Source: Oscillospiraceae bacterium (GTDB lineage: Bacteria > Bacillota > Clostridia > Oscillospirales > CAG-272). From it: a stretch of DNA of 64,000 bases. The notes beneath the pieces were generated by a model. The model had not been told where the DNA came from and ran no database searches. It worked only from the letters and a program-made list of their open reading frames with translations. This document shows positions 12,740 through 61,200 of this stretch, one piece after another (position 1 is the first letter of the stretch; each line of letters opens with the position of its first letter). The position numbers and the translations under genes were made by a program. Where the stretch lies: assembly GCA_015064505.1 (NCBI GenBank), contig SVSB01000006.1, positions 1,233 to 65,232 on the forward strand, in the 5' to 3' direction.

Positions 12740-12749
12740 GGAGGAATTT

Positions 12750-13454: not shown

Positions 13455-13463
13455 GGAGGAAAT

Positions 13464-25650: not shown

Positions 25651-25660
25651 AAACGCCTCC

Positions 25661-44549: not shown

Positions 44550-44645
44550 AAATACCGTCCTTTCTGTGGCATCATTCTACCACGGCAAGGGGTGGTTTTC
44601 AACGCACAAAATTTGGTAACGGAAAGGGCAACGGGTAATTAGCTA

Positions 44646-44674
44646 TTGACAAAAATAGCTTTCAATGATAAAAT
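44646..44674 (+). promoter_or_regulatory. rnpB promoter
   Basis: TTGACA (44646-44651), a 17-nt spacer, then TAAAAT (44669-44674), with an extended -10 TG at 44666-44667. Confidence 0.65.
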
Positions 44675-44679
44675 TTAAT

Positions 44680-45058
44680 GACCGAATGGCGCGATCGCGT
44701 GGCATGTTGCCGAAAGGTATTGCCATGAGGAAAGTCCGGGCTTCACAGGGCGGGATAACGGATAACGTCCGCCGGAGGCGACTCCCGGGAAAGTGCAACA
44801 GAGATATACCGCCTGCCTTTGGCAGGTAAGGGTGGAAAGGCGAGGTAAGAGCTCACCGATCCCTATGGTAACACAGGGATCCTGTAAACCCTATCCGAAG
44901 CAACACCGTATGCGGAATCGGCTTTGCCGAGTGGCGGCCCGTCACGTTTCCGCGGGTGGCAGAAGCTTTTAGCTTTGAGGGCTGCGGTAACGCAGCTCAC
45001 AGACAGATGATCGCGGTTTCGCTTTGCGATCCACAGAACCCGGCTTACAAGTTCGGTC
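44680..45058 (+). ncRNA. rnpB: RNase P RNA, bacterial type A
   Basis: It has the universal motifs GAGGAAAGTCCGGGC and ACAGAACCCGGCTTA. The internal run AGGTAAGGGTGGAAAGGCGAGGTAAGAGCTCACCG parallels E. coli M1 RNA. P1 pairs GACCGAA (44680-44686) with TTCGGTC (45052-45058). Confidence 0.92.
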
Positions 45059-45094
45059 AAAAAAACAGCGGCTCGCGCCGCTGTTTTTTTATTT
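45059..45094. terminator. bidirectional intrinsic terminator (rnpB and the convergent SGNH gene)
   Basis: A-run, then ACAGCGGC-TCGC-GCCGCTGT (45065-45084), then a T-run. Confidence 0.85.
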
Positions 45095-45098
45095 TGTA

Positions 45099-47171
45099 TT
45101 ACTTTACCGTCTTGTTTGTAAAATCGCCCTGAAGCTTATCTGCGTAAGCGCTTGCGACGGTTACGTTGATGCTGCCGCTTACTGCGTTAGTATTATCTAC
45201 TGCCGCAATGATCTTGCCGCTTATCTCGCCGCCGTTGACGGTTACGTTTACGGTACCGGTCATCTCAGCTTTATCTGTAGTCGTGGTAGTTCCCGCTCTG
45301 CCGACGCAAAGCACGTTACCGTTTATGGTGCCGCCGTTGATAATAAGATTACACTCGCCGTGATTGGAGTTCATTCCCACGGCAGAAGTATGTAATGTAG
45401 AGCCGGCGTTAAGGAAAGTACCGCCGTTTATGGTCACGGTCAGCTTGCCGTTCTTAGTAATACCGCCAAAGGGTTGAGCAGGCAGGCTTCTGCGATTGCC
45501 GCAACGGATATATACCCAGGTACCGCCGTTTACTTCAATATTGCATTCTCCGTCCAAAGAAATAGCTTCGAGGGGAGTGCCGCCCACAGCAACGTTCATT
45601 CCCACAAGCAGGAGAGGATAAGTCTTGAATCCGCTTCCAAGGGTAATATTAACGCCCTTTCCGATGGTAACGTCATTATAATTGCAGATGAGCATCAGGC
45701 TGTTGGCCTCAACTACCATCTCCACGTCGTCGATAACGAAATCTCCGTGCAGGGAGAAGGAATGTGCCATATGGATGATCGCGCCGTTAGTTTTGCGGTA
45801 ATCAACTCCGTTGTAAACGGAAGTAAGAGTAATAGTCTTGAAATTCTCGGGCATGAACTCGTTATAGGTGGTCTTATATTCACCGCAGATAACGATAGTG
45901 CCTCCGCTCTCACGCAGAAGTCCCACTGCCTTTGAAATGGTGTTTACGGCGCTTTCGGGAGTTTCGCCCTTGCCTTTTTCGTTGCCGCCCGTCTTTACGT
46001 ACACCACTCCGCTATCGGACTTTTCGGGAACCGCAACGTCAGCCTCTGTACCGCGAAGTCCCGCTTCAACTATCTTTGCCATCTCCGAGTAGCCCTCGGC
46101 GCGAGGATGGAGTCTGTCACCCGTGTAATGCATATAAACGTTTATATAGGGCTTGGATATCTTCCACATATCGATAAAGCCGCAGCCTGCCTCATCGGCG
46201 GCTTCCTTAACGAGCTGTGCCATAAAACCGTTTGAAAGCTGCACCGCCGTGCTGGATGTGGGAACGAATATATTGCTCATAAGGTATATTTTTTTAACGG
46301 TGGGAAGCGCCTCATAATCCTTAACGAGGGCAACGAGAGCCTTCTTAAATTCCACCGTGGCATCAACGCAGGACATACTGCTCATATCGTTGGTGCCAAG
46401 CATAATGACTACAACGTTCGGCTCAAACGCAATACTATCCTTATAGTGCTGAGTGTTTTTGTAGGAAAGCTCCGGTCTATCCTTTTTTGCATTATACTTG
46501 TGATCTGCGGCAAGCGCATAAGACCCGCCCTTTCCAAAATTGCCGACAAGATACTTATCGCCAAGAAGTCTCTGCAGATATGCGGGATAGCTGTCACGCG
46601 CAAAATCCTGAACACCTGTACCCTGAGTAATACTGTCGCCTATACAAGCGATTTTAAGCACTTCCCCGTTTTCTATGAGCTTTTCAAGCTCGTCAAGCTC
46701 GATCACCGGAGGAACGACAGGTTCCGTTACGGGCTCTGTAACCGGCTCTGTAACCGGCTCTGTAACCGGCTCGGTTACCGGCGGTTCCGTTACGGGAGGC
46801 TCGGTTACGGGAGGCTCAGTTACGGGAGGCTCAGTTACGGGAGGCTCAGTTACGGGAGGCTCGGTTACGGGGGGTTCGGTTACGGGAGGCTCCGTTACGG
46901 GAGGCTCGGTTACGGGAGGCTCGGTTACGGGAGGCTCTGTTACGGGGGGTTCGGTTACGGGAGGCTCCGTTACAGGAGGCTCCGTTACGGGAGGCTCTGT
47001 TACGGGGGGTTCGGTTACGGGAGGCTCTGTTGCAGGGGGTTCCGTTGTGGGAGTAGCGGTTACCGGATCGGTATCTGGTGCAGTGGTTACTTCCCCGCCG
47101 CCCGTGCCGCAAGCACATAAAGCACCGAAGCAAAGCACAGAAGCCAGAAGAATGCAGAATAATCTTCTCAT
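45099..47171 (-). CDS. secreted or lipid-anchored SGNH/GDSL hydrolase with a (TEPPV)n linker and a C-terminal ~300-aa module of unknown function
   Basis: The signal/lipobox-like N-terminus is MRRLFCILLASVLCFGALCACG. The Pro/Thr repeat covers about aa 40-160. SGNH blocks are IACIGDSITQGTG, GKGG, VVIMLGTNDM and DRLHP. The C-terminal module (nt 45102-46010) has TSVYNGVDYR and repeated NGGT turns. Confidence 0.8.
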   Translation of the reverse strand: MRRLFCILLASVLCFGALCACGTGGGEVTTAPDTDPVTATPTTEPPATEPPVTEPPVTEPPVTEPPVTEPPVTEPPVTEPPVTEPPVTEPPVTEPPVTEPPVTEPPVTEPPVTEPPVTEPPVTEPPVTEPPVTEPVTEPVTEPVTEPVTEPVVPPVIELDELEKLIENGEVLKIACIGDSITQGTGVQDFARDSYPAYLQRLLGDKYLVGNFGKGGSYALAADHKYNAKKDRPELSYKNTQHYKDSIAFEPNVVVIMLGTNDMSSMSCVDATVEFKKALVALVKDYEALPTVKKIYLMSNIFVPTSSTAVQLSNGFMAQLVKEAADEAGCGFIDMWKISKPYINVYMHYTGDRLHPRAEGYSEMAKIVEAGLRGTEADVAVPEKSDSGVVYVKTGGNEKGKGETPESAVNTISKAVGLLRESGGTIVICGEYKTTYNEFMPENFKTITLTSVYNGVDYRKTNGAIIHMAHSFSLHGDFVIDDVEMVVEANSLMLICNYNDVTIGKGVNITLGSGFKTYPLLLVGMNVAVGGTPLEAISLDGECNIEVNGGTWVYIRCGNRRSLPAQPFGGITKNGKLTVTINGGTFLNAGSTLHTSAVGMNSNHGECNLIINGGTINGNVLCVGRAGTTTTTDKAEMTGTVNVTVNGGEISGKIIAAVDNTNAVSGSINVTVASAYADKLQGDFTNKTVK
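46730..47045 (-). repeat. in-frame tandem repeat: about 4 x 12 bp (TEPV) then roughly 17-18 x 15 bp (TEPPV)
   Basis: The plus strand reads GGCTCTGTAACC x4, then GGTTACGGGAGGCTC-like units with synonymous wobble variation. The copy number is from a by-eye count. Confidence 0.9.
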
Positions 47172-47389: not shown

Positions 47390-49984
47390 TTACTCTGCAG
47401 CCGCCGCAACAGCGGAGCAGCCGTAATTATAGAGAGCGCGAGCAAGCTTTGCAGCACTGCTCAGCTCCTCACCGTCCATATCGTTCTGCATCTCGTAGAT
47501 AAAGGATGCAACGCTGTAGGTAACGGTCTGAACAACGGTATCGCCCGCCTTGAGAACGGCAACCACGTTATCGTTATAGTCCGTGGCGGAAATATCGTCG
47601 CTGTATACGATGTAAGAGCTGCCGTAGGGGGTGATCTCCGCCTCGTTGCCGTTCACCAAAACGGTAATACCGTCAGCGGAAGGAGCGGTGAAGGTGAAGA
47701 ACACTCTGTTCGTATAATCAAAGCGCACGCCAACGCTGTTGAACTTAACGCCGTCAACTGCCGTACCTGCAACGGAGCTTGCCGCGTATACGGAATTATC
47801 AAGCTCTTCAAAATCGGATATACCGCTGATATCCACGTTTGCAAGGCTGTCAAGATTAAAGCTTCTGTATTCCTGTGCGGCGGCACCGTATGCAAGAATA
47901 TCCTTTGCAAGCTGCTTTACCGCCTCGGATGTAGACTCAGCATCTATAAGATTCTCGCAGTATCCGCGCACGGACTGTCTTGCGGAATCGACGAGAACGT
48001 CATCAACGTAAAGGTCAACCGTTATAAGCTCGGTCATTGACTGGGGAGCGATCGCCTTGAGGGTGTATTTATACATAAGACCGTTCTCAACTGCCTCTGC
48101 CTCGTAGGTCTCGTCTGCATAGGTAAATACCACCTTGGTGCTTGCAGGGTCAACGCCTTCTGCAAGAGTTGCAATGGCATTGAAGGAAAGGTCCGTGCCA
48201 ACGGAAAGGCTGATACCGTAGATTCCCGTCTCAACCTTTGCCTCTGCGGTGTTTTTCAGCGCAGTAAGCTCGGGGTAAGTGGTTCCCTGCTCCCACGCAC
48301 CGGAAGAAGGCTCGCCGTTCAGCATGGGAGTAACTACTCCTGCGGCGATAAAGCCGGATGTCATAGAATTATATCCGGCTGCATCGGTGGTAACGGATCC
48401 GGCAGTGGCGTGACCCACGGCGTTCTGAACCGTGCTTCCCTGCTTTGCCGATCCTGCAAGGTAATAGCAATCGGATGCGGTGAGGGGGAAGCTTGCGTGA
48501 GGGTATCCTATTATACTACCGATAAGCTTAGTGGGTCCGTAAATGGTTCCTGCATTAAAGGAATTGCCAAGAGTTATTTTCCACTTTGTACTTGCAGTGG
48601 CTCTCTGTGCAAATCCGATGATTCCGCCAACGGCACGGTCTGCCGTAACGTTGCCGTAATTTGCGCAATTGCTGACGGTGTGTACGCCGTCCTGAAGAGT
48701 TCCCACCACGCCGCCAACGTAATAGCCCGTACCGCTGACAGCGCCGTAGTTTGCGGAATTCGATACCTCAAGGGTAAGTCCTGCCGCACCGCTTACAAGG
48801 CTTGCATAACCGAGAATACCGCCTGCAAAGCTGTTGCTTGACGTTTTTGTAGCGACTACGTTTCCGCTGTTTTTGCAAGCCGTTATGGTAACGTCGCCGC
48901 CTTCTATCCATCCTACGATTCCGCTGTCATATCCGCCTGCGGTGGTAGACATAGTACCGGTGTTGGTGCAGCCTACAACGTTAAGCTCGTAACTTGCGGA
49001 GTCGCTAATAGAAGCAACGCCAACGATTCCGCCAAGTCCCGCCCTTGCATTCAGATCAACGGTATTGGAGCAGGAAACGATATTTATAGCACCGTTGTTT
49101 TCAACGACCTTGATGCTTGCGTTACCGCTGGAGATCCAACCGACGATGCCACCGACTCTTCCCTTATCCGCACCGTCTGCGGAAGCGGAAAGAACCTTTG
49201 CGGAGTTGGTGCAATCAACCACGTTGATTACGAAATCATCGGAATTGAAGTAAGATATCTGTCCGATAAGTCCGCCGCTCTGAGCGTAATAGTTGCCGGT
49301 AGCGGAAACGTAATTCACTGTACCGGAAGCGGAGCATCCGATAACGTTCACAGTTCCGTCGGTTACGGGGTTAGTCGTATTAGTTTCTCTGCCTGCGGTC
49401 AGAATACCGATAAGTCCGCCAACGCCAAAGGTGCCCTTCGCGGTTCCGTCGGAATGGCAGTTAACGATATTTACGGTTCCCGTTGAATAGGGGAACACGT
49501 AGCCTGCGAGACCGCCGACTGCCTGCGCGCCGGAGGTTACGGAAACGGAGGCGGTGACGTTTTCGATGAGAGTGTTGCCGCTGACAACGCCCACAACGCC
49601 GCCGTTACCTCTGCTGGAGGTGGTGGAGGCGGTAACGGTGCCGCTTACGGAGAAGTTCTTGATCTCGGCGTTATGTACCCAGCCGAAAAGTCCCTGGTGC
49701 TTCTCACCGGAGAGGTTAAGTCCCGTAATGCTGTGACCCATACCGTCAAAATACCCGGTAAAGTGCTCTTCTGCACTACCTATGGGGCTTTGGGTCTTGC
49801 CCGTAAGGTCAATATCAGCTGTGAGATAATAAGCACCGCTCCACATTTCGGGGGTGCTCATCAGCTCAACGAGCTGATCGGCGCTTGATATGGGCTTTAC
49901 TGCTGTTGCAGAAGCGGTCACGGGAATCACCGCAAGAGCAGTTACCAATGCAAGCACCATTGCAAGTAGTTTCTTGGCTTTCAT
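47390..49984 (-). CDS. secreted GLUG-motif repeat protein (paralogue 1)
   Basis: Start set at ATG 49984 (MKAKKLLAMVLALVTALAVIPVTASA) behind AAGGAGAA. More than 9 GLUG-like turns are present (GGLAGY, GGLIGIL, GGLIGQI, GGIVGWI, GGIVGVA, GGILGYA, GGVVGTL, GGIIGFA). There is no C-terminal anchor. Confidence 0.75.
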   Translation of the reverse strand: MKAKKLLAMVLALVTALAVIPVTASATAVKPISSADQLVELMSTPEMWSGAYYLTADIDLTGKTQSPIGSAEEHFTGYFDGMGHSITGLNLSGEKHQGLFGWVHNAEIKNFSVSGTVTASTTSSRGNGGVVGVVSGNTLIENVTASVSVTSGAQAVGGLAGYVFPYSTGTVNIVNCHSDGTAKGTFGVGGLIGILTAGRETNTTNPVTDGTVNVIGCSASGTVNYVSATGNYYAQSGGLIGQISYFNSDDFVINVVDCTNSAKVLSASADGADKGRVGGIVGWISSGNASIKVVENNGAINIVSCSNTVDLNARAGLGGIVGVASISDSASYELNVVGCTNTGTMSTTAGGYDSGIVGWIEGGDVTITACKNSGNVVATKTSSNSFAGGILGYASLVSGAAGLTLEVSNSANYGAVSGTGYYVGGVVGTLQDGVHTVSNCANYGNVTADRAVGGIIGFAQRATASTKWKITLGNSFNAGTIYGPTKLIGSIIGYPHASFPLTASDCYYLAGSAKQGSTVQNAVGHATAGSVTTDAAGYNSMTSGFIAAGVVTPMLNGEPSSGAWEQGTTYPELTALKNTAEAKVETGIYGISLSVGTDLSFNAIATLAEGVDPASTKVVFTYADETYEAEAVENGLMYKYTLKAIAPQSMTELITVDLYVDDVLVDSARQSVRGYCENLIDAESTSEAVKQLAKDILAYGAAAQEYRSFNLDSLANVDISGISDFEELDNSVYAASSVAGTAVDGVKFNSVGVRFDYTNRVFFTFTAPSADGITVLVNGNEAEITPYGSSYIVYSDDISATDYNDNVVAVLKAGDTVVQTVTYSVASFIYEMQNDMDGEELSSAAKLARALYNYGCSAVAAAAE

Positions 49985-50063: not shown

Positions 50064-50099
50064 AAAAGCTGAAAGGGGTTTTACCCGTTTTCAGCTTTT
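50064..50099. terminator. terminator ending the GRE-to-SDR operon
   Basis: AAAAGCTGAAA-GGGGTTTTACCCG-TTTCAGCTTTT extended hairpin, 5 nt after the SDR stop. Confidence 0.8.
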
Positions 50100-50104
50100 G
50101 CCTT

Positions 50105-50842
50105 TCAGCAGTTAAGTCCGCCGTTTATATAAATAGGTTGTCCCGCAATGCGGTTGCTCTTATCGGAAGCAAGAAACACTGCAAGCTCCGCTATCTCCTC
50201 GGGATACGCCATTCTGCCGAAGGCGCTGGGGAAATCCGCAGGCTTTCCTTCGGTCCAGTTCATCATCTCCGTGGTAACGGGACCGGGAGCTATATTCTGC
50301 ACCACTATGCCGCGCTTAAAGAACGCCTTTGCGTATCCCTGGCACATTCCCATAACGCTCCATTTGGAGATACCGTAGGGATGCACGCAGGGCTGATGAC
50401 CCGTTTCCGAGCTTATGACGATTATCTTGCCCTTAACTTCCCTGTCCGCGTTCTTTTCCTCAAAGAATTTGCAGGCGGTCTGCATACAGAAGAAAGCGCC
50501 CTTTACGTTGATGTTAAAAATGGTATCCCATTCCTCTTCGTCAACGTCGTAAAGTCTTTTTCTTCCGATAACGCCCGCGTTGTTTATCACAACGTCGATG
50601 CCGCCCATAAGAGAGCTTGCCTCAGCAAACACCGCAGGGCCTTTTTTTACGTCCGAAACGTCCCAGACGATACAGTGGGCAACACCGCCGCTTTTCACGA
50701 TGGAGTCTTTCACGGGTTCAAGGGTCTCTGCCCTTCTGCCCGTTATTACTATTTGCGCGCCCTCGTAAGCACACTTACGGGCAATAGCCTCTCCGATTCC
50801 ACGGCTTGCTCCCACGATCAGGATCTTTTTACCTTTAAGCAT
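50105..50842 (-). CDS. SDR family oxidoreductase
   Basis: 245 aa. The cofactor motif is GASRGIGEAIA, with NNAG also present. The catalytic Tyr-x3-Lys region is PYGISK. The start overlaps the GLUG-2 gene end by 8 nt. Confidence 0.85.
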   Translation of the reverse strand: MLKGKKILIVGASRGIGEAIARKCAYEGAQIVITGRRAETLEPVKDSIVKSGGVAHCIVWDVSDVKKGPAVFAEASSLMGGIDVVINNAGVIGRKRLYDVDEEEWDTIFNINVKGAFFCMQTACKFFEEKNADREVKGKIIVISSETGHQPCVHPYGISKWSVMGMCQGYAKAFFKRGIVVQNIAPGPVTTEMMNWTEGKPADFPSAFGRMAYPEEIAELAVFLASDKSNRIAGQPIYINGGLNC

Positions 50843-52625
50843 CTTGATCTCTTACTTTCTTCTTAAGGATCACCGCCGCAAACGTAGCCGCCATAGCCGC
50901 AAATACCAGAATGATAAGAGTAGCATCACCCGTATCTGCCGCAGTGGTAGACTGGGAAGCATCTGTAGTCGTTGGAGCGTCAGTAGTTGTTACCGCATCG
51001 GTAGTGGGAGCCTCGGTGGTGGTAGGAGCCTCGGTTACTGCATTGCCGGTGGTAACGGGTGTGTCGTCGCCCGTGCCCTTTGCAACGGTGCGAAGGGTAG
51101 GAACGGAATTTTCAATCACCCACACGTTTGCAAAATCAAAATTTTTGAAGGTTTCTGCCTTTGCGGCATCTGCAGAGGAGACTGCAGTTGCAAGCAGATC
51201 CATCTCGGAATCCAAAAAGTAACAATCGTTTACGGTATTAAGACCGTTGGGTGCGGCGGAAAATCCGCACTTAACGCCAACAAAGTCCGTAACAACGAGC
51301 TTGCCGCCGTTGAAGCAACGGTTTGCAACAACGTCGCTGTCAGAGAAAGCAAATATGCCCGCAGCACCCGCAAAGGCGGTAACGGTGCCGTAGTTTGCAC
51401 AATCGTTAAAGGTGAAGTTCATACCGGCGGTGGAGCTTGCCTTGATAGCGTGGCCCATAATACCGCCCGCGTGCTGACCCGTTGCCTCAACGGAGCCCAG
51501 ATTCGCGCACTGCTCGAAGAGGTAAACGCCGCCCTTGGTTCCGCCAAGGATACCGCCTACGTAATCTGCGCCGCCCGAAACGATGCCCTCGTTTACGCAT
51601 CCCTTGATATTGACCGCAAAATCGCTGCGATACTGGAAGGTTACGTATCCGATTATACCGCCCACGTAGGAGGAACCAACGATCTCCGCGGTGTTCTTGC
51701 AGTTGATTATATTTACGGTACCGCCCGCGGGATTATCTAAGGAGGTCTTTACGTTGCTGTCCATCCAGCCGACAACGCCGCCAACGCGGGTCTTGGGTGC
51801 AACGCCCGTAAGAGAAGCGTTATTCACGCAATCGGAAACGGTTACTTCGAAGCCGTGGGCAACGTAGGTAAAGATATTACCTATAAATCCGCCCGCCTGA
51901 CCTGCCGCAGAGCCGGAATAGTAGATGACCTCTCCGTTTCCGCTGCAGCCTTCAACGGTTATCTTCGTATTAGCGAGGGGAGTTTTCGTTTCTTCCACGC
52001 CGCCGGCGGAAAGAATTCCGATAAGACTGCCAACGCCTCTGCCCGCCTCGATTTTTCCATAGGCGTGGCAGTTTTTGATGGTAAGAACGTCGTTATCGGC
52101 AATACAGCCTGCCTTACCCGCAAGACCGCCTACCGCCTGTGCGCTTGCAACGCCGAGAGCGGAAACGTTAACGTATGAGGTTACGTTCTCAAGGGTGCTA
52201 GTGCCGCGAAGAGAACCGACGATACCTGCGGCGTATACCTCCGTTCCGCTCGTGGAGGTCTCCTCAACCTCACCCTTTACGGTGAGGTTCTTGATTGTAA
52301 CGTTTTCAGCCTTGCCGAAAAGTGCCTGATACTTGCTTCCGGAAAGATCAAGTCCGGAAATGGTCTTGCCGTTGCCGTCGAAAACGCCCGTAAAGGGGGT
52401 TTCCGCGTTTCCGATAGGTGCCTGACCGCTTCTGCCTGTAAGGTCTATATCTGCGGCAAGATAGTAAGTGCCGCTCCATTTGGAGCTGTCACTCATAAGA
52501 GAAATGAGCTCACCGGCATCGGAAATTGCAGTGCCTTCCGCCGCACTTACCCCAAAGGGTACTGCAAAAAGAGCAAGCATGGCCGCCAGAAGTATTGCCG
52601 TGATCTTTCTTGTTTTCATAGCCAT
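50835..52625 (-). CDS. GLUG-motif repeat surface protein with Thr/Pro-rich stalk and C-terminal TM anchor (paralogue 2)
   Basis: It has a signal peptide, and an alternative start at 52619 gives better RBS spacing. The N-terminal ~100 aa are colinear with paralogue 1. GLUG turns and a TTEAPTT stalk follow. The tail is LIILVFAAMAATFAAVILKKK. Confidence 0.75.
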   Translation of the reverse strand: MAMKTRKITAILLAAMLALFAVPFGVSAAEGTAISDAGELISLMSDSSKWSGTYYLAADIDLTGRSGQAPIGNAETPFTGVFDGNGKTISGLDLSGSKYQALFGKAENVTIKNLTVKGEVEETSTSGTEVYAAGIVGSLRGTSTLENVTSYVNVSALGVASAQAVGGLAGKAGCIADNDVLTIKNCHAYGKIEAGRGVGSLIGILSAGGVEETKTPLANTKITVEGCSGNGEVIYYSGSAAGQAGGFIGNIFTYVAHGFEVTVSDCVNNASLTGVAPKTRVGGVVGWMDSNVKTSLDNPAGGTVNIINCKNTAEIVGSSYVGGIIGYVTFQYRSDFAVNIKGCVNEGIVSGGADYVGGILGGTKGGVYLFEQCANLGSVEATGQHAGGIMGHAIKASSTAGMNFTFNDCANYGTVTAFAGAAGIFAFSDSDVVANRCFNGGKLVVTDFVGVKCGFSAAPNGLNTVNDCYFLDSEMDLLATAVSSADAAKAETFKNFDFANVWVIENSVPTLRTVAKGTGDDTPVTTGNAVTEAPTTTEAPTTDAVTTTDAPTTTDASQSTTAADTGDATLIILVFAAMAATFAAVILKKKVRDQDA

Positions 52626-52655
52626 TCTCCTTTATTTTTCATTTTTCGGATCCGC

Positions 52656-54164
52656 TCAGTCTGCCCAACTGTCTATTACCTTACGGTATCCGTTGTTTAC
52701 TGCTTTGATCTGCTGCTCAGCAATGGTGGAGTTTGCCGCATAGATGCTTGCAAAATTGCTTTCCTTTGCGCGGAACATATTAAGAAGCAAGGAGTTCATA
52801 TTGCCGATACGGTGAAGCTGACCGATATCGTAAATGAAGCTGTCGTAAATAATATCAAGCATTGCAATGCTCTCTTCATCGCGGAAGTAAGTGCCCTTGA
52901 TGGTCTTCTCATATACCGCTGGTCTTACTATAGTGCGTCCGTAGTACGCAAGCGCTTCTGTTACGATGGAGGTGAAATCCATATCCTCCTGAACGGAGGG
53001 CAGGCAAAGGAACTGGGAGTTATAGGTGGGGATGGTGCTGTAGTAACGGGTCTGCTCAGAGTTAAGCATGGGGAACGGAAGAATACCGAAGTCGGAATCC
53101 ATCTCTCTCATGCTTGAAGTATTAAAGGTGGAAGTTGCCCAGAAGAGAGCCTGGTCGTTTGTCCACTTCTCGCGCACGTTACCGTTATTGCTGTAGCGCT
53201 GATACTGAATAGCGTAATCAGTATTGTAAGCAACGTTACCGAACTTTTCAATTACGGAAAGCACCTTATCGTTGTAGATGGTAAGCTCGAACTCACCGTC
53301 CGCATTGATGGAGGCAACCTTCTGTCCTGCGGCACTGATCATACCGAGGATGGAATCGTCCCAGGCGTAAAGACCGTAGCGATCTTCCATATCCATGGTT
53401 CCGTTACCGTCAAGATCCTCGGAAACCGCAAGGCAAAGCTCTGCAAACTTATCAAGGGTCCACTTTTTATCAAGCACCAGCTTATAGGGATCCTCGCCGT
53501 TAAGCTCTTCTCTGCCAAGTGCCTTATTATAGAATATTACGTAAGTACAGTCGGACTTTGCGGCAGTTATGTCGCCCTGGGTAAAGAATATATTACCCAT
53601 TACCTGCAGATCGGTATTTGCGTTCTGATCCCACCAGGATTTTTCCAGATCCATATACTTTGCCTCGGCGAGAGGAACCAGATACGAGCTGTACGCAAGG
53701 GTGGAAACGTCCATACCGCCGATAAGACCGATATGATAATCCGCATCGTTTGCGTCAACGGCACGGGAAACGCGCTTGTAGCCTGAGCCGTTACCTACGC
53801 CGGACTTATTTTCGTCTATGACTATGTTAATAACGACCCCGAGAAGATCCTCTACCGTGGTCTTGCGCATATATTGCGCCTGATCAAGCACCTCCGTGCC
53901 CGCATCGGTAAAGCTGAAATCGTCGTAAGCTACCTGACCTGCGGAAATAACTACGAACTCCGCATCGTCAAACTTCCCCTCGGGGATCTCAAGCTTTTCT
54001 TCGGGCGCCGAAGTAACGGAGCTGTCGGTGGTATCGGAGGGGGATATTGCGGGAGCATCGGTCACCGTGGGCTCCGTGGTGGTAACGGTGGTGCCGCCGC
54101 CTCCGCAAGCAACCACGGAAAGGGCGGTGATCATAACCAAAATCAATGCGATTATCTTTTTCAT
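52656..54164 (-). CDS. extracellular solute-binding lipoprotein (large family-1 sugar SBP), orphan
   Basis: The lipobox is ALSVVACGG. It is 502 aa with a composition typical of carbohydrate ABC SBPs. No permease or ATPase genes are adjacent. Confidence 0.7.
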   Translation of the reverse strand: MKKIIALILVMITALSVVACGGGGTTVTTTEPTVTDAPAISPSDTTDSSVTSAPEEKLEIPEGKFDDAEFVVISAGQVAYDDFSFTDAGTEVLDQAQYMRKTTVEDLLGVVINIVIDENKSGVGNGSGYKRVSRAVDANDADYHIGLIGGMDVSTLAYSSYLVPLAEAKYMDLEKSWWDQNANTDLQVMGNIFFTQGDITAAKSDCTYVIFYNKALGREELNGEDPYKLVLDKKWTLDKFAELCLAVSEDLDGNGTMDMEDRYGLYAWDDSILGMISAAGQKVASINADGEFELTIYNDKVLSVIEKFGNVAYNTDYAIQYQRYSNNGNVREKWTNDQALFWATSTFNTSSMREMDSDFGILPFPMLNSEQTRYYSTIPTYNSQFLCLPSVQEDMDFTSIVTEALAYYGRTIVRPAVYEKTIKGTYFRDEESIAMLDIIYDSFIYDIGQLHRIGNMNSLLLNMFRAKESNFASIYAANSTIAEQQIKAVNNGYRKVIDSWAD

Positions 54165-54187
54165 AGCGTTTACCTTTCTTTTTTCGC

Positions 54188-55075
54188 TTATCTTAATGCG
54201 CAGGAAAGCACGGACTGCACGGCGGCAAGCTCTTCTTTTGAAGGTACCGCCGTTTCCGGCATGGGATAATCCATACCAAGTGCCTCGTACTTCGTGCGCG
54301 CAAGATCGTGATATGCAAGTGCCTTAACGGCTCTTACGTTCTTAAGACCGGAAATAAATTCCGCGATCTTCTCCGCTTCCCCGTCGTTTTTGCCGGGAAC
54401 GTACGGATATCTTATCTCCATCGGCATTCCGACAGAGTCAAGATAAAGGATATTTGAGATGATTTGCTCGTTTCCCATACCTGTGAGCTTTCTGTGCAGA
54501 TCGCTGTTCATTGCCTTGATATCGCAAAGGAACGTATCCGCATACCTTGCGGCACGTTCAACGTTTCTTCTGTCGACGGCAAGAGAGGTATCCACCGCCG
54601 TATGTATTCCCTCTTTTTTTAGCAGGGAAAGGAGCTCACAAAGGAAATCGATCTGCAACAGAGGCTCTCCGCCCGAAACGGTAACTCCGCCGCCCGTCTT
54701 TTCGTAAAACTTACGGTCCAGAAGCAGCTCGGGAAGGATATCGGCGGCGCTTATCGCCTCGCCGAATATCTTATTTGCCTTTTCCGCACACACGGCTTCG
54801 CATTTTCCGCAGACCTTGCAGTTTTCTCTGACGAAATAATGCTTCCCGTCAATAATTATCTGTGCTCCGTTCGGACATACGGCAACGCAAGCGCCGCAGC
54901 TTACGCATTTGTGAGAGTAATGAGCAAGCTGTGGGGGTGCGAACAACCCCTCGGGGTTATGGCACCAGAGGCACCTCAGCGGGCACCCCTTTAAAAACAG
55001 CGTCGTGCGTACTCCGGGTCCGTCGTGTATCTCAAGGCGCTTTATCGCAAAATATACGCCCCTTGGATCACTCAT
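54188..55075 (-). CDS. glycyl-radical enzyme activating protein (radical SAM)
   Basis: The radical SAM motif is GCPLRCLWCHNPE. Two ferredoxin-type clusters are CVSCGACVAVCP and CKVCGKCEAVC. The start overlaps the GRE stop by 8 nt. Confidence 0.9.
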   Translation of the reverse strand: MSDPRGVYFAIKRLEIHDGPGVRTTLFLKGCPLRCLWCHNPEGLFAPPQLAHYSHKCVSCGACVAVCPNGAQIIIDGKHYFVRENCKVCGKCEAVCAEKANKIFGEAISAADILPELLLDRKFYEKTGGGVTVSGGEPLLQIDFLCELLSLLKKEGIHTAVDTSLAVDRRNVERAARYADTFLCDIKAMNSDLHRKLTGMGNEQIISNILYLDSVGMPMEIRYPYVPGKNDGEAEKIAEFISGLKNVRAVKALAYHDLARTKYEALGMDYPMPETAVPSKEELAAVQSVLSCALR

Positions 55076-57272
55076 ATTTTCCTCCCGAAGCTCGCTTCAA
55101 AAAGTCTGACTGAACTGCAGGATGCATATTGACGAAATACTCGTTCCAGCCGCAAACGCGCACCTGGAGATCGGGATAATTCTGCGGATTCTGCTTTGCA
55201 TCAAGAAGCGTTTCTATATCGATAACGTTGCCCTGAATGCAAAAGCCCTTATTCTCGAAGAATATTTTTATTACGGAGCACATAAAGTCAAGTCCCGCTT
55301 CGCCCTCCACTGCCGTGGGGTGCATCATAAAGTCGCAGGGTGCACCGTCCGCCGCATCCGTAAAGTCGATGGCGGCAAAGGAAGCAAGAAGACCGGAAAG
55401 TCCGCGATGCTCACAGCCGTTGACGGGGCGGATGTTTTTGGAAAGAGGCGCTCTTGCTCCGCGTCCGTCGGGACTTGCGCCCGTGTTTCTGCCGTAGCGC
55501 TCCGCAAAATTCACGGAATCGCCGCCCATTCTGTAAACGCCGCCGTTTGCGGTGGGCTTACCAACTATCTGCTTTGCCATAAAGGCGTATATCTCGGCGG
55601 CAAGATTATCAGCCTCGGGCTCGCCGTTGCCCCATTTGATCTTATCGCTCTTTATCTCAGCACGGAGAAGCTCCGCGCCGCGCCAGTTGTTCTTAAGTAT
55701 CGTGTGCAGCTCCGCAAGAGTGACTCGCTTCTGTTCGTATACGAACTTTTTAACTGCAAGAAGCGAATCCACCGTGGTTCCCAAAGCCATTATCTTAACG
55801 CTTTCGTTTGCAAGGGGAAGTCCACAGTCAAATACGTCGCGTCCGCGCTCAACGCAGCTTGAAAAGGTGGTTGAAAGAAGCGGAGCGGGATTTGTTTCGT
55901 AGGAATAGGGAGCCTGCTTATTTATGTTGTCTATGGTAAATTCCGCAAACTTGCGCAGGTAATCGTAAAACGTTTCAAGGAATTCTTCCCAGGTCTTCGG
56001 CTCCTCGCTTCTTCCGAAGAAATAGATCTTCAGAAGCAGGTCCTCACCGCCCGTAACGGCATATTCAACAGCCTTTTCCATATTGATCCAGGAGGAGCAG
56101 ATATGCATCTCCTCCACGTTGGGAATAAAGGTCTCGTTACAGCCGATGGGCAGATAATTCTTCGATACCTCTCTGCCGATGCCGATCTTTTCATAAGCCT
56201 CAAACACCACCTCGTCGTTATAGAGGATAATGGAGGAGGCACCCGCACGAGTCATTTCCATCAGCTTGCGGAGTATGACCTCGGGCATATTTTTGCTGCA
56301 TCTTACGTGGAGCTTGGGGTTATGGATCTTCAGCTGCTGATAGATATCAAGAAAATCAAGTATCATTCTGCAGTTTACGGAATCCTCGCTCCAATCGGTG
56401 CCGATGCAGAGAGGCTGATCCGCATAGCGCTCCTCTGCCGCTATCTTTAGCAGGAAATAACCGAACATGGTCTTGATTTCCTCGCGGCTCATTCTTCCGG
56501 AGCTTATGTCCGCCTCGTAAAAGGGCGCCCAAAGCTGATCCACGGAACCAAGAGAACGAATTCTCTCCCTTGCAACCTCTCCCGCCGTCAGCATAACGTG
56601 CTGAAGGCAAAGCACCTCGTAAAGAGTTTCCGGTCTGCGTTCCGTAAGGGCGGCGTATATATCCGCCTGCTCATCCATTCCCTTTTCCCTGCAAGCAGAG
56701 GAAAGGCGGTTTAAATAAATCCGAACCGCGTCAAGGGCGATCTCGGCACTCTGATAAAAAACTCTTTGTCTGTCGGTAAGCTCACCCGAGGCTTCCTTTG
56801 CAGCTTTAGCATCCTCAAGACGGGATACAAGACCCACGAAGCCCGTTTCCACTACGGGACGCCAGTCAAACACCGCGTGCCATACGTCAAGATCGGGGAT
56901 GCCCATTCCCGTAAGAGCGCACAGCTCGCGCATTCTGCGCACACCGGGAATGCGCTTATCAAGGACTGCGCGGTAGTGCTCGGTGGAAAGCTTTTCAAGT
57001 ATTCCCGCGTGAGCGACTTTATCTATAACAACGCCGTTGCATATTTTATCGGGAAACGGGGAACGGGTATTTATGTCAAGCATACCGTTTTCAAAAAGGT
57101 ACCTGAAAACTTCAGCGAATACAACGGGGTAAGGACGGCTTACGTTATCTTCAAAATGCTTGCGCATTTCCGCCATCATCACATCAGGGCTTTTGCCGCT
57201 GTTTTCATCCCATTTCGCATTGATGTACTCGTGCCTGTTAATTGCTTTGTCTTCAAACAGTCTGTCAAACAC
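55068..57272 (-). CDS. glycyl-radical enzyme, divergent, substrate unknown
   Basis: 734 aa. A GTG start lies 6 nt after GGAGGG. The C-terminal glycine-radical loop is LQVRVCGWNEYF. ASPDGRGARAPLS is also present. The thiyl loop candidate is PIGCNET (Cys-x-Glu spacing). Confidence 0.8.
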   Translation of the reverse strand: MFDRLFEDKAINRHEYINAKWDENSGKSPDVMMAEMRKHFEDNVSRPYPVVFAEVFRYLFENGMLDINTRSPFPDKICNGVVIDKVAHAGILEKLSTEHYRAVLDKRIPGVRRMRELCALTGMGIPDLDVWHAVFDWRPVVETGFVGLVSRLEDAKAAKEASGELTDRQRVFYQSAEIALDAVRIYLNRLSSACREKGMDEQADIYAALTERRPETLYEVLCLQHVMLTAGEVARERIRSLGSVDQLWAPFYEADISSGRMSREEIKTMFGYFLLKIAAEERYADQPLCIGTDWSEDSVNCRMILDFLDIYQQLKIHNPKLHVRCSKNMPEVILRKLMEMTRAGASSIILYNDEVVFEAYEKIGIGREVSKNYLPIGCNETFIPNVEEMHICSSWINMEKAVEYAVTGGEDLLLKIYFFGRSEEPKTWEEFLETFYDYLRKFAEFTIDNINKQAPYSYETNPAPLLSTTFSSCVERGRDVFDCGLPLANESVKIMALGTTVDSLLAVKKFVYEQKRVTLAELHTILKNNWRGAELLRAEIKSDKIKWGNGEPEADNLAAEIYAFMAKQIVGKPTANGGVYRMGGDSVNFAERYGRNTGASPDGRGARAPLSKNIRPVNGCEHRGLSGLLASFAAIDFTDAADGAPCDFMMHPTAVEGEAGLDFMCSVIKIFFENKGFCIQGNVIDIETLLDAKQNPQNYPDLQVRVCGWNEYFVNMHPAVQSDFLKRASGGKYE

Positions 57273-57305
57273 GGAAATCCCTCCGAATTTTTATATTTCT
57301 GATTT

Positions 57306-57334
57306 ATTATAGCAACGCCTCTCAGAAAAATAAA
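57306..57334 (-). promoter_or_regulatory. candidate promoter of the GRE operon
   Basis: Minus strand has an extended -10 TGCTATAAT (TATAAT at 57306-57311). The -35 TTTATT, 17 nt upstream, is weak. Confidence 0.4.
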
Positions 57335-57386
57335 TGCATAATAGCGCACATTTGTAGTTTTCCGTAGTGTAATTACGCAAAAAACA

Positions 57387-57432
57387 TTGACAATATTTTC
57401 CCCTTAGTTTACAATCTATACAGTATATTGTA
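57387..57432 (+). promoter_or_regulatory. AraC-gene promoter overlapped by an inverted repeat
   Basis: TTGACA (57387-57392), a 17-nt spacer, then TACAAT (57410-57415). The dyad TTACAAT-CT-ATAC/GTAT-ATTGTAA spans 57409-57433. Confidence 0.55.
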
Positions 57433-57465
57433 AGCAAGAACGCAAAAACGAAACGGAGTTTTTAT

Positions 57466-58245
57466 ATGGTGTTTTTCGAAAATGTACAAATTTCCCGCAC
57501 AAGATGGTGCTCAAAGCTCTATCTGAACGCTTTGCACCTCACCCGCTTCAAGCCGAGAAAAAGCCATGCTTTTGTGGTTTTCCTTACCGGATGCGTGAAA
57601 TATACTTATCCGAACAATAACGTGATAATCGCAGAGCCAAACTCCTTTCTTTATCTTCCTCAAGGCGTTGAATTTGATTTTCAACCGATTCAGCCGTCAA
57701 CCTGCCTCGTAGTCAACTTCCACACTTCGGGAAAAACGGATTTTGAAGCCTTTGGCGCAAATTACAGAAACATCACGAAGATACGCGATTGTATGCTTGC
57801 GGCAGTAAACGCATATAAAAACCAAAATATCGGCTATAAAGCAGAGATATTTTCGGAGATATACAAAATAATCTCCCTGGTGCAGAAAAACGAGATAAAC
57901 GACTATGTTTCCCCCGAGCAACGCAAAAAGCTGCAGCCCGCAATAGAGCATATCGAAAAGCACTTTCTTGACAGCGATATAAAGATCTCCGAGCTTGTGA
58001 AGCTTTGCGGAATAAGTGAAAAATACTTCACCACCCTTTTCTCTCACTATTATCAATCGGGAGCAAAGCAATATATAATACACAAGAAGCTTGAATACGC
58101 CCGCGCCCTGCTGGAATCCACCGCATCTTCGGTAACCGAAATATCGGAGGCCTGCGGCTTTTCATCGGTATACTATTTCTCCAAGCTATTCAAGCAACGC
58201 ACGGGAATGACTCCGACGGACTACAGACGCATCAATATTTACTGA
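57466..58245 (+). CDS. AraC family transcriptional regulator
   Basis: 259 aa with a cupin-like N-terminus. The C-terminal HTH is VTEISEACGFSSVYYFSKLFKQRTGMTPTDYRR. It is divergent from the GRE operon. Confidence 0.85.
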   Translation: MVFFENVQISRTRWCSKLYLNALHLTRFKPRKSHAFVVFLTGCVKYTYPNNNVIIAEPNSFLYLPQGVEFDFQPIQPSTCLVVNFHTSGKTDFEAFGANYRNITKIRDCMLAAVNAYKNQNIGYKAEIFSEIYKIISLVQKNEINDYVSPEQRKKLQPAIEHIEKHFLDSDIKISELVKLCGISEKYFTTLFSHYYQSGAKQYIIHKKLEYARALLESTASSVTEISEACGFSSVYYFSKLFKQRTGMTPTDYRRINIY

Positions 58246-58252
58246 AAAATGA

Positions 58253-58290
58253 ATCAGGCGCACTCTTCGGAGTGCGCCTGATCTTTTTAT
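58253..58290. terminator. bidirectional terminator
   Basis: ATCAGGCGCACTC-TTCG-GAGTGCGCCTGAT followed by CTTTTTATTTT. It sits between convergent genes. Confidence 0.8.
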
Positions 58291-61200
58291 TTTGCTTTGC
58301 GTTTTTTCACGATCACGAAAACGGCAACTGCAACAACGACAATCACCGCCGCAGCCGCACATATTATAACCGTCGCATTCCCGTCGGAAGCATCTCCGGG
58401 AATAACGGGATCGACCGCAACAGGTGCGTTCTCATCAACGGTCAGCGTAAACGTGCCGCCAAGACCGTTAAAGGCGTAATTGCCGGAAAGGGTAGCCTTT
58501 ACGGTGTAAGTTCCGTCCTCGGTGGGAAGTCCGTCCGTGAAGTCGGTGCCGTTTGCGGAATAGCTGTAAGCTATATCACCGTAGCTTTCATCATAGCTCT
58601 TACCGCCGTAAACCTTGATATCAAGCTTTCCTTCTTCCGCTTTTCTGACGGTATAACCCTCGTCAACTCCAAGGAAGTTGCCGTCCCAGTTATCAAATCC
58701 GCCTATCTTCTTAAAGAGGGGCGTGCCGTTGAGCATTACCTCAAAGGCGGTGCTGAGGGGTGAAGGAGAATAATTCTGACCCACGTGGAAGCCGTCGGAA
58801 TCAACGGTGTAAGGCTCCATAAAGCAGTAACGGTATCCCGAGGTATCGGGGCCGAAGTACGCGTGGTACAGAAGGTAATCCGTCTTTCCGTCCGGGGAGG
58901 TCATAAGGTTAGGACCGCCAACGCCGCAAAGCTCACTGTTCTTCTTGAATATGGACTCCGGCTTCTTCTCCCAATTATTGATATCGAAAAGATCTCCGCC
59001 CTTAAAGGTCATCTGACCCAGGTTATATCCCGGAGTCCAGTATCCGCTTGAAGCATAAACCACGAACAGCTCGTTGTTTTCACTGACGATGGGCGTAAGT
59101 CCCTCTATAACCGCAGGGTACCATATTCCCTGCGCGGAGCTGTAGCCGTAGCCCTCGCGCTCTCGGGGGAGCTCGGGAATTATAAGATCAAGGATGGGTC
59201 CCGTAAGAGTCCAAGGATTCTTCATTTCCGCAAGGCGCGCGATCTGCATAAAGCCGTCCGTGCCTCTGCCCCTCTGCTCAACCCAAAGGGAATAGACCTT
59301 TCCGTTGTAGCGGAATACGGACTGACCCGCCGTCCATTCGGCAAAGTTAACGTCCTTATCCGTCTCGTGCACGAGTCTGACGGGGATGTTTTCCTCGCCC
59401 GTTTCGGGGTTTACCCAAACTCCCTGAAGATCGTTTGTTTTGCTCTTCATCAGATAACTGCGTCTGTTCTCTCCGTCCACGTATCCGCTGTCGCTTACAG
59501 AGGGCTTATAGGTCGAGAAGAGATGGTAATACCCCTCGTATTCGGGTCCGAAATCATCTGCGGAGAAATACTGCAGCTCCGTTGGCCAGATGTTCTCATC
59601 TCTTCCCTCAAGCGCCGCGGAAACGGCGGGGTCCTTTGCGTTCCACACTCTCTCGGGTGCGGAATAACCAAGATCGGGAAGATTTGCCGCCTTATAGACC
59701 GCAAGGGCGGAGCCCGTGGTATATACGTAATAATACATACCGTCAACCAGTATGGCTCTGGGGTCTGCCGCTCTGTCTATGGGGTTCGTATAGGTTATGG
59801 TACCCTTCAGTTCAGATGAGATATCAATATTCTCACCAACGGTAATTTTGGATTCCGCGTTACCGCCGAAGAGCTCGTCGCCGTCTATATCCGTGAGGTG
59901 ACCGTAATCACCGCCGTTGACCGCAACGTTGAATTTTCCGTTCACAACGCAGGTACGTGCTGTTGCAACGGCAACCTTGCAGTAGAAGGTACCGCCGTTC
60001 AGAGTGATATTTATCGTACCGCTGAAGCTCTCTCCCTCCGCAGATGCGGATGAACCGAACGCACCTGCATAAAGCGTACCGCCGTTTACGGTAAGGCTGG
60101 CGCTTCCCTGCTGTTCTCCGCGTCCTGCGGCAATTACCTGTCCGTAGAATTCACCGCCGCTTATCACGGTCTCAAACTTTACTCCGTTATGCTTGGTGCG
60201 CAGAGAGTTTCCGCCCATCACCGTATTCCACTTGCCGCTGTTTACGGCAAGAGAGGAGCCGTAGGCATCAGAGCCCTCGGAGCCCGCCAAAAGATTGGGG
60301 TAGAGGCTGACCGAAGCAAGGCAGGAGGACTGAATTCCCTCTCCGATCACCGCATCGTATCCGTTAAAGATGAAATAAACGCTGTCTGCCGCGGCTTCTA
60401 TAGCCAAATTTTCAAGCTTTACGTCACAGTTGAAGGAAAGGTCTGCACCGAGGGAGAGCTTTGCCGCGCCCACGTTTACGTAATTCACACCGTCATAAAC
60501 GGAGGTCACGGTGATAACTCCCTTGGATTTTGGTAAATGGGTGTCGTCTGCAACCGTAACGTTACCAACAATCACCACTGTTCCGCCGCCGTCGCCCAAA
60601 AGGGCAAACGCATCGGAAAGGGAGCCCACAGCCATTGCAGCAGAGCTTCCGTTGCCCGTTGCGCCGTCCTTTACGAATACAACGCGCTCCACCTCTCCGC
60701 CGCCGAATACACCGCGGAGCTTTTCTACGGTCTTTTCGTCCGTATTTTCGGGATCGTATTTAAAGTGCTTTTCTCCGTTTATGCCGTTAAGAACGGTTTC
60801 CCCTATATTACCGCCGCTGTATCGCAGAACCACTGCACCTGAAACACGGGCGTATTCTATGGCGTTTACCGTACCACCGGAAACGTCTATGCTTGCAGAG
60901 CCTGCAGAGCCGCCCTTTCCTGCGGTTATTATCTTGTTAACGGTACCGCCGCTTACGGCAACGGTCACGCTCTCCGTAACGCCCTTGCCGCTTGTTGAGC
61001 CGTACACGGTCTTTACGTTACCGCCCGAAACGGAAATGCTTGCGCTCTTGTAGGTAACGCCGTTATCTCCGCCACCGATGCCGCAGACCTCGTTAAAGGA
61101 TCCGCTTTCGATGATTATCTCGCCGGTCGCACCCGCCTTGATGGCACCGGAGCGCTTTCCGCCGTAAGCATTGAAGCTGCCCTTCGTATCAAAGCCCTTG

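Follow-up and report, generated by a model that had tools for sequence, protein, structure and literature searches.

A predicted CXE-type glycyl-radical enzyme system set among putative glycan-harvesting genes in an Oscillospiraceae bacterium

We analysed a 64,000-nt stretch of DNA (the window) from an Oscillospiraceae bacterium (CAG-272; assembly GCA_015064505.1, contig SVSB01000006.1, positions 1,233-65,232), in which five co-directional, tightly spaced minus-strand open reading frames (ORFs) encode a glycyl-radical enzyme (GRE), here called GRE1, its activase (AE1), a lipoprotein (LIPO), a GLUG-type surface protein (GLUG1) and a short-chain oxidoreductase (SDR) (Table 1). An original prediction, made from the sequence alone, had presented these genes as a five-gene operon with a divergent AraC regulator. 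All five ORFs lie where it had placed them, and its spacing was reproduced throughout: GRE1 and AE1 overlap by 8 nt, AE1 and LIPO are separated by 23 nt, LIPO and GLUG1 by 30 nt, and GLUG1 and SDR overlap by 8 nt. For GLUG1, a second ATG at 52619, positioned 8-9 nt after AAGGAG, fits better and is the more likely start, which would widen the gap to LIPO to 36 nt. The genes, their spacing and the divergent regulator are real, but the unit was drawn too small, leaving out BIG, a giant surface protein with a glycoside hydrolase family 43 (GH43) domain, and AE2, the activase of a second glycyl-radical system.

Table 1. Features of the GRE1 locus, with positions counted from the first nucleotide of the window
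Feature	Position	Strand	Description
GLUG2	47390-49984	-	864-aa GLUG surface protein; GLUG1 paralog; own ribosome-binding site
Hairpin 3' of SDR	50064-50099	-	Identified by fold energy and conservation
SDR	50105-50842	-	Classical short-chain oxidoreductase
GLUG1	50835-52625	-	GLUG-type beta-solenoid surface protein
LIPO	52656-54164	-	Lipoprotein; lipobox Cys20; predicted MalE-type carbohydrate solute-binding fold
AE1 (activase)	54188-55075	-	Radical-SAM GRE activase; TIGR02494
GRE1	55068-57272	-	734 aa; GTG start; GGAGGG ribosome-binding site
Divergent control region	57273-57465	.	Promoters and conserved blocks between GRE1 and AraC
AraC-family regulator	57466-58245	+	Divergent to GRE1; HTH_AraC and HTH_18 (Pfam)
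Bidirectional hairpin terminator	58252-58283	.	Strong; 13-14 bp stem; between convergent AraC and BIG
BIG	58287-63602	-	1771-aa surface protein with GH43 domain
AE2 3' end	63627-64000	-	Second GRE activase, cut by window end

GRE1 matches the PFL-like (PF02901, 254 bits) and Gly_radical (PF01228, 69 bits) domains of Pfam, and AE1 scores 305.7 bits against TIGR02494 (cut-off 174) and carries a CX3CX2C motif together with two ferredoxin-like Cys clusters. With its barrel and glycine-radical domain, its catalytic Cys and an activase gene alongside, GRE1 belongs to the GRE superfamily. Gly708 sits in the motif RVCGWNEY, and the Cys loop reads G-Cys378-Asn-Glu380, where the family consensus is GCYEP with Cys and Glu invariant. 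The best match in the Protein Data Bank (PDB) was the glycerol dehydratase 1r8w (E = 7.5e-61), whose Gly763, Cys433, Glu435 and His164 align with Gly708, Cys378, Glu380 and His132 of GRE1; all four GRE1 residues are invariant in a 22-sequence family alignment spanning 31-100% identity. The roles we assign to the catalytic Cys, Glu, His and Gly residues follow a recent review, which uses the CXE motif to delimit the 1,2-eliminase and isomerase classes of these enzymes (PMC13450708). Together, these motifs establish GRE1 and AE1 as a predicted complete CXE-type (1,2-eliminase/isomerase) glycyl-radical system.

Assignment to a known enzyme failed at every point: the cut-offs of all NCBIfam equivalog models lie far above the score of GRE1, which places it outside all characterised clades. 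GRE1 reaches 287.7 bits against the glycerol/propanediol dehydratase model TIGR01774 (cut-off 678.2), and was likewise rejected as HypD (232 bits, cut-off 1100), CutC (176, cut-off 1050), HpfG or HpsG (237 and 196, both with a cut-off of 1000), a PflD-type enzyme (NF007437, 205 bits, cut-off 1109), an arylacetate decarboxylase (134 against 1100 and 122 against 1150) and PFL (86, cut-off 994). Scores of GRE1 against the equivalog models run four to eleven times under their cut-offs. Further PDB matches were HypD, in second place, and YbiW/PflD, at 183 and 148 bits. The residues Ser282, Asp447 and Tyr640, which bind glycerol in 1r8w, correspond to Ile238, Cys392 and Asp585 in GRE1, and Gln636 to an invariant Arg581, in a pairwise HMMER alignment in which local shifts are possible.

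The lipoprotein encoded downstream of AE1 scores 15.2 bits against PF01547 (SBP_bac_1; E = 0.021, cut-off 26) and found no match in a PDB sequence search, whereas many of its homologs (37-60% identity) carry precomputed PF01547 matches; the lipobox Cys20 is invariant among these homologs. Foldseek matched an AlphaFold model of LIPO, for which 39 homologs were aligned (pLDDT 86.5), with probability 1.00 to AbnE, MalE, GltA, GL-BP and others; AbnE (6rjy), which binds arabino-oligosaccharides, came first (E = 7e-14), ahead of MalE-type proteins. The same search returned 6lcf, a beta-L-arabinobiose-binding protein of the bifidobacterial extensin-arabinoside system. As modelled, LIPO has the MalE-type fold of a carbohydrate solute-binding protein (SBP), and its original labelling as an SBP stands on this structural match rather than on the profile score of the protein itself. 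The accompanying statement that the SBP lacks a permease was also upheld: a scan of ORFs measuring at least 200 aa across the window turned up no ABC permease, and none lies next to LIPO orthologs in the loci examined. An orphan MalK/MsmK-type ATPase (ABC_tran plus OB_MalK) is encoded at 17889-19055 (minus strand), with no adjoining permease or SBP gene. It is possibly a shared energiser of sugar importers, and would be compatible with permeases encoded elsewhere. At two other loci, L088 (8001-11711) and L089 (2827-6750), LIPO homologs (42-44% identity) adjoin a 733-769-aa GH43 protein, with neither permease nor GRE, such that an orphan sugar SBP together with a surface GH43 protein forms a recurring two-gene module.

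BIG, beyond the AraC gene, combines a signal peptide, three DUF1565-like beta-helix modules, a GH43 domain at approximately residues 1270-1605 and a C-terminal transmembrane anchor. It scores 39.2 bits against PF04616 (cut-off 32.2), a domain that most of its homologs also carry. PDB matches of the GH43 domain were 3akf, 5m8e and 3k1u, the best two being exo-arabinofuranosidases, and two of the three GH43 catalytic acids are conserved in 45 BIG-family members, within the motifs ADP (base) and VxEG (acid). In the GRE1 clade BIG is more widely kept than LIPO, GLUG or SDR, making it the best-conserved surface partner of this GRE clade, and one absent from the original prediction. A gap of 24 nt separates the end of the AE2 gene from the BIG start codon, and in relatives AE2 follows GRE2, a CXE-type enzyme of ~715-730 aa with the motifs GCAE and RVGGFSAY that is only ~25% identical to GRE1 and has no NCBIfam assignment either. 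Judged from this arrangement, the GRE2 gene of the present genome should lie just past the window end. The picture of a single GRE system does not hold, as a second, unrelated GRE/activase pair belongs to the same conserved set. A C-terminal module in common with BIG (tblastn cross-hits) was also seen in a 690-aa GDSL esterase that has a Pro-rich linker; its gene and the adjoining one for a 442-aa dockerin protein lie at 43221-47171 on the minus strand.

To compare neighbourhoods across 87 related loci, we used tblastn, clustered the ORFs and built a neighbour-joining GRE tree. LIPO or BIG was found within 8 kb in 22 of 25 loci of the GRE1 clade, compared to 8 of 70 elsewhere (Fisher p = 4.7e-12), which shows the SBP-like lipoprotein to be genuinely co-conserved with this GRE clade across species. 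Gene orders vary (GRE-AE-LIPO-BIG, BIG-LIPO-GRE-AE and GRE-BIG all occur), and the adjacency of GRE, LIPO and BIG persists through these rearrangements, on the same strand and with short gaps. Among the closest relatives, L014 (GRE1 88% identical) shares the window's gene order and L010 (90%) follows it as far as its contig reaches, ending before the SDR position. The order in L090 (70%) is GRE2-AE2-BIG, AraC on the opposite strand and then GRE1-AE1-LIPO, with the contig again ending before the SDR position. L011 (69%) reads GRE2-AE2-BIG-GRE1-AE1-SDR-LIPO, with no orthologous AraC next to GRE1, and L092 (62%) reads AE2-GRE2-SDR-BIG-AraC-(module protein)-GRE1-AE1, a 482-aa module-type surface protein taking the place of LIPO. 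In L013, an AraC gene stands between the activase and the lipoprotein. The five-gene string is therefore not a fixed unit, its order differing in L013, L011 and L092 (where SDR lies beside GRE2).

Relatives with GRE1 at least 62% identical nonetheless retain a conserved set, comprising GRE1/AE1, GRE2/AE2, SDR and a GH43 surface protein. It usually extends to AraC and LIPO, each missing from one member (AraC from L011, LIPO from L092). The regulator is 86-88% identical to that of the window in L010 and L014 and 36-57% identical in more distant clade members, and it co-evolves with GRE1. A more distant locus, L031 (GRE1 43% identical), carries in order a small cytoplasmic GH43, GRE3-AE, SDR (56%), GRE2 (51%)-AE, AraC on the opposite strand and GRE1-AE. 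This stretch (980-13050), from a human-gut Ruminococcaceae metagenome-assembled genome (MAG), thus holds three tandem GRE/activase pairs, plus a zinc-type alcohol dehydrogenase. One GH43 subfamily as the recurring link was rejected: no relationship to the GH43 domain of BIG could be detected for the cytoplasmic GH43 of L031, and the LIPO-partnered GH43 of L088 shows only a distant one (23% identity, E = 6e-6), so that the recurring link is GH43 in general, not one subfamily.

The SDR scores 155 bits against adh_short and carries the motifs GASRGIG and YGISK. PDB and NCBIfam searches for its specificity gave generic FabG-, glucose-dehydrogenase- and acetoin-reductase-like matches, with no specific equivalog reached. 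Six loci, representing 4-5 distinct lineages, hold orthologs of it (at least 56% identity), each time within a GRE cluster and in three of the six directly beside a GRE or activase gene; this confinement to GRE clusters supports the proposal that SDR is the redox partner of the GRE.

GLUG1 presents a different picture. It has a signal peptide, a beta-solenoid at approximately residues 30-460, a disordered Thr/Pro-rich linker and a C-terminal transmembrane anchor. The Pfam GLUG profile PF07581 does not match it and gives GLUG2 8.3 bits (E = 4.6, cut-off 20.5), and a PDB sequence search with GLUG1 found no match. The protein has seven GG[LIV]xG repeats, and a model with a core pLDDT of ~85-95, made from a modelling alignment of two sequences only, retrieved 3n6z, 7uvk and 6xja as best PDB matches (E = 1.7e-4 to 2e-3, probability 1.00). 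All three are GLUG-domain proteins, and 7uvk and 6xja are IgA1 proteases. The name of GLUG surface protein can be kept, resting on the repeats and the modelled beta-helix and not on a profile score. Orthologs were found only in L004, L005, L013 and L014, which are the closest relatives (GRE identity 73% or higher), and GLUG1 looks like a lineage-specific addition rather than the fixed operon member it had been taken for. GLUG2 follows SDR in L004 and L014 too. GLUG beta-helix proteins are probably lineage-specific surface accessories for adhesion or glycan binding.

Beyond this clade, a profile search with the GRE1 family returned more than 150 cluster representatives (50% identity) with scores exceeding 430 bits. 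Their lengths are mostly ~680-790 aa, with a minority of fragments or long fusions; five of the proteins (P0369, P0392, P0399, P0393 and P0395) bear N-terminal extensions of 300-830 residues, for totals of 1025-1563 aa. A scan of GTDB species representatives yielded 523 relatives of GRE1, the best 80 of which come from MAGs of uncultured gut and rumen Clostridia, Oscillospiraceae and Christensenellaceae, with the exception of one MAG labelled Bacilli and one labelled Bacteroidaceae; two or three copies of the short GRE are present in several genomes. On this evidence GRE1 is placed, by sequence, in a family of short (~730 aa) CXE-type GREs that is both large and uncharacterised. A literature search on GREs with glycoside hydrolases, arabinan, pectin, pentoses or anhydro-sugars found no paper describing the family. 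The statement that no GRE operon of this make-up has been described also survives comparison with a 2026 review of GREs, which contains no comparable locus (PMC13450708).

A divergent AraC gene lies directly upstream of 61 of 86 GRE genes of the family and an activase directly downstream of 60 of 87, both figures being undercounts, and AraC-GRE-activase forms a near-universal core of family loci. Around this core, neighbour content tracks the GRE tree. One clade is accompanied by an SDR and by the 2-keto-3-deoxygluconate pathway, with KDPG aldolase (Eda), a PfkB kinase, an SMP-30/lactonase-like protein (SGL) and UxuA; another adjoins a GH2 enzyme, and a third two apiosidase-like (PF13204) proteins. 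In L006, a 64% relative, genes for an SBP, two ABC permeases and DUF624 come directly after GRE-AE. Three different GRE lineages adjoin BIG-type GH43 proteins. In L022 (14796-15596), as also in L084 and L085, a type I dehydroquinase-like protein of 266 aa is encoded directly upstream of BIG-type GH43 genes; these loci belong to a separate GRE clade, which also has a BNR/sialidase-like surface protein.

Signals for transcription of the string were examined in turn. The hairpin after SDR has a fold energy of -23.8 kcal/mol (z = -4.15) and is kept in two relatives. A consensus terminator scan did not call it because its U-tract is short, and what had been described as a strong terminator is better termed a plausible one: the hairpin is real and conserved, and is probably an intrinsic terminator or attenuator. 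Upstream of GRE1, the extended -10 element originally put forward, TGCTATAAT (57306-57314, minus strand), is conserved in four relatives, and the divergent regulator was confirmed by a clear Pfam match. The AraC gene has its own promoter candidate, TTGACA-17-TACAAT, at 57387-57415 on the plus strand, and conserved blocks within the intervening control region may be AraC operators. Inside the five-gene string, terminator-like sites were limited to weak 5-7-bp stems at near-chance frequency (16 found, 13.4 expected), and promoter-like sites numbered 11 against 11.4 expected in shuffled sequence. A candidate internal promoter in LIPO (53251-53223) was not accepted, the count of such sites being equal to chance. 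No leader RNA hinting at a ligand came out of an Rfam scan covering 43-64 kb. The sole match was a bacterial RNase P class A RNA at 44679-45063 (plus strand, 254 bits), located between the GDSL esterase and dockerin-protein genes.

Taken together, we consider it on balance probable that the five genes form part of a more extensive locus for carbohydrate catabolism in an uncultured gut or rumen Clostridia bacterium, with the GREs working on a harvested plant sugar. The sugar released by GH43 is our best guess for the GRE substrate. That this sugar is specifically arabinose is a clearly weaker proposition than the general carbohydrate model; arabinose-containing glycans are suggested by the resemblance of the GH43 domain to arabinofuranosidases and of the SBP to AbnE, and by GH43 and GH51 genes that adjoin a further locus, L008.

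A working scheme can be outlined as follows. Acting at the cell surface, BIG would use its GH43 domain to release a sugar or oligosaccharide from a plant glycan, an arabinose-containing one being the best guess. LIPO would bind the released product and hand it to ABC permeases encoded elsewhere, and AraC would sense the imported compound and turn the operon on. In the cytoplasm, the Cys378 thiyl radical of GRE1 would take a hydrogen from a hydroxyl-bearing carbon, Glu380 would deprotonate the hydroxyl, and His132 would help the neighbouring C-O group leave. The outcome would be a dehydration, or a ring or ether C-O cleavage, yielding a deoxy-carbonyl product that SDR could reduce, epimerise or interconvert. 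GRE2 would either catalyse a second radical step or take the other stereoisomer, as YbiW and PflD do for two epimers.

A more far-reaching proposal, which we offer tentatively and with less conviction, is that GRE1, GRE2 and SDR constitute an undescribed radical pathway for an unphosphorylated plant-cell-wall sugar, its polyol or an oligosaccharide, released by GH43 and captured by the orphan SBP, a pathway at work in strictly anaerobic gut Clostridia. The wider ~730-aa family would then consist of radical carbohydrate-active enzymes, each subfamily having its own partner (GH43, GH2, apiosidase-like proteins or a sugar-acid pathway).

Several points weigh against the carbohydrate account. The lead of AbnE over other sugar SBPs in the LIPO fold search is small, and with no permease at the locus or in the window, import is an assumption. 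The existence of LIPO and GH43 pairs apart from any GRE means that the surface pair can work independently. In the GH43 family of BIG, a conserved Gly aligns to the pKa-modulating Asp, at a place where the alignment is uncertain, and BIG may be a non-canonical GH43 or non-hydrolytic. The AraC gene and the terminator behind it separate BIG from the GRE1 operon, and on this layout the two would be separate transcripts in the window. As to the comparative data, ORF calling in the loci was crude, which depressed the AraC and activase adjacency counts, and the loci come from related MAGs, such that part of the co-occurrence reflects shared ancestry. The chemistry and flux set out above are inferred from motifs and neighbours.

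One alternative is that unrelated units simply lie side by side, with AraC-GRE1-AE1 a self-contained small-molecule cassette next to abundant surface-protein genes and the tight spacing a matter of genome compaction. That the AraC-GRE-AE triad is the sole near-universal unit fits this reading, as do the LIPO-GH43 pairs that occur apart from GREs, the insertion of AraC between activase and LIPO in L013, the confinement of GLUG to close relatives, and the recurrence of BIG's beta-helix modules on many surface proteins of the lineage (e.g. clusters c30, c62 and c37). We nevertheless regard it as unlikely. Chance proximity would have to accommodate the strong enrichment of LIPO and BIG in one GRE clade, an adjacency that survives several rearrangements with strand and short gaps preserved, the pairing of three GRE lineages with BIG-type GH43 proteins, the different and equally carbohydrate-related neighbours of other GRE clades, and SDR orthologs that sit in a GRE cluster wherever found, half of them (3/6) directly beside a GRE or activase gene.

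A second alternative retains the plant glycan and changes the substrate: the GREs could act on a non-sugar moiety, for example a hydroxyproline isomer or derivative, freed together with arabinosides from extensins or arabinogalactan proteins. HypD is the second-best PDB match and third-best NCBIfam match of GRE1, and the retrieval of 6lcf by the LIPO model could be read in the same direction, given that this protein belongs to an extensin-arabinoside system. Two or three GREs clustered together would also recall the known hydroxyproline GREs, which form paralog sets for stereoisomers (PMC13450708). The HypD model score of GRE1, however, is no better than its scores for unrelated eliminases, the LIPO fold is of the sugar type and not the peptide type, and the loci seen contain no proline or amino-acid metabolism genes, their neighbours being glycoside hydrolases, sugar kinases, aldolases, GFO/IDH/MocA proteins and sugar ABC systems; we judge this alternative highly improbable. 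Least probable of all is that GRE1 is a divergent glycerol or 1,2-propanediol dehydratase for fermentation diols with SDR as the alcohol dehydrogenase, since the B12-independent glycerol dehydratase that is its best PDB match, the conserved His, Cys, Glu and Gly and the reductase in the same operon are set against the shortfall on TIGR01774 (288 against 678 bits), the differences at the aligned glycerol-binding positions, a locus devoid of microcompartment, aldehyde dehydrogenase and 1,3-propanediol dehydrogenase genes, and many paralogs whose different glycoside hydrolase partners point to diverse, larger substrates.

Under the preferred carbohydrate account, GRE1 adds a new functional variant to the GRE superfamily and is not a new kind of system. 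It shares with the glycerol dehydratase of Clostridium butyricum (1r8w) and with propanediol dehydratase (5i2a) the GRE fold, the radical motif, the CXE loop, an equivalent of His164 and an adjoining activase with ferredoxin-like clusters, and the likely common chemistry is hydrogen abstraction next to a hydroxyl followed by loss of the neighbouring C-O group. The relationship to glycerol dehydratase is distant: the HMMER alignment begins at GRE1 residue 130, and the N-terminus of GRE1 is ~50 residues shorter. In contrast to those dehydratases, the GRE1 locus comes without microcompartment, 1,3-propanediol dehydrogenase or aldehyde dehydrogenase genes and sits among glycan-harvesting genes. 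Like the microcompartment loci GRM1-6 and GRMguf, it has a GRE and its activase as signature enzyme of a catabolic locus, yet shell-protein, aldehyde dehydrogenase and phosphotransacylase genes are absent from the window and from the related loci examined. The original prediction had likewise noted the lack of shell genes and of a permease, and scans of the window proteins agree, with bacterial microcompartment shell domains in neither the scanned window proteins nor the annotated related loci.

The sole characterised sugar-acting GREs are YbiW and PflD of Escherichia coli, isomerases of 1,5-anhydroglucitol-6-phosphate and 1,5-anhydromannitol-6-phosphate. Both are CXE-type enzymes that cleave a C-O bond, and they form a paralog pair for two stereoisomers (PMC13450708). 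This pair provides a precedent for GRE1 and GRE2 acting in one pathway. Their similarity to GRE1 is low, and their substrates are sugar phosphates. The gene complement of the GRE1 loci includes an extracellular GH43, a lipoprotein SBP, AraC and SDR. The hydroxyproline enzymes HypD, HplG, HpyG and HpzG are also CXE-type, comprise several paralogs for related isomers and are common in gut Clostridia (PMC13450708). GRE1 departs from them in falling short of the HypD model and in having no amino-acid metabolism genes nearby.

On the side of glycan capture, the closest parallel is the arabinan system of Geobacillus stearothermophilus, in which, as with LIPO and BIG, a lipoprotein sugar SBP (AbnE) is paired with an extracellular GH43. 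The genes of that system comprise the SBP AbnE, the permeases AbnF and AbnJ and GH43 arabinanases. LIPO differs from AbnE in being ~100 residues longer, in sharing 14% identity with it and in having no adjoining permease genes, and the downstream enzymes of the GRE1 locus are GREs and SDR, and not AraA, AraB and AraD.

Characterised GREs act mostly on small fermentation intermediates. If the carbohydrate account is true, a large family of glycan-locus GREs would extend radical enzymology into the mainstream of dietary-fibre breakdown, through enzymes that have their own AraC regulators, occur in clusters of two or three with a reductase, and are found in abundant yet uncultured gut and rumen Clostridia. 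Biochemical testing can now start from concrete gene sets and from candidate classes of substrate, making the family a good target for enzymology, and the comparison has brought to light the recurrent pairing of an orphan sugar SBP with a surface GH43 protein.

Three further features of the window lie apart from the GRE1 locus. A second AraC-regulated cluster of sugar type at 10672-15490 encodes an AraC protein with a cupin domain, two GFO/IDH/MocA oxidoreductases and a xylose-isomerase-like TIM-barrel protein. On the minus strand, a 1899-aa protein (33499-39198) joins a BlaR1-type M56 peptidase/sensor domain to BspA-type leucine-rich repeats, and an MBOAT acyltransferase adjoins a DHHW/AlgX-like SGNH protein (24460-27058), in what looks like a cell-envelope O-acylation system.

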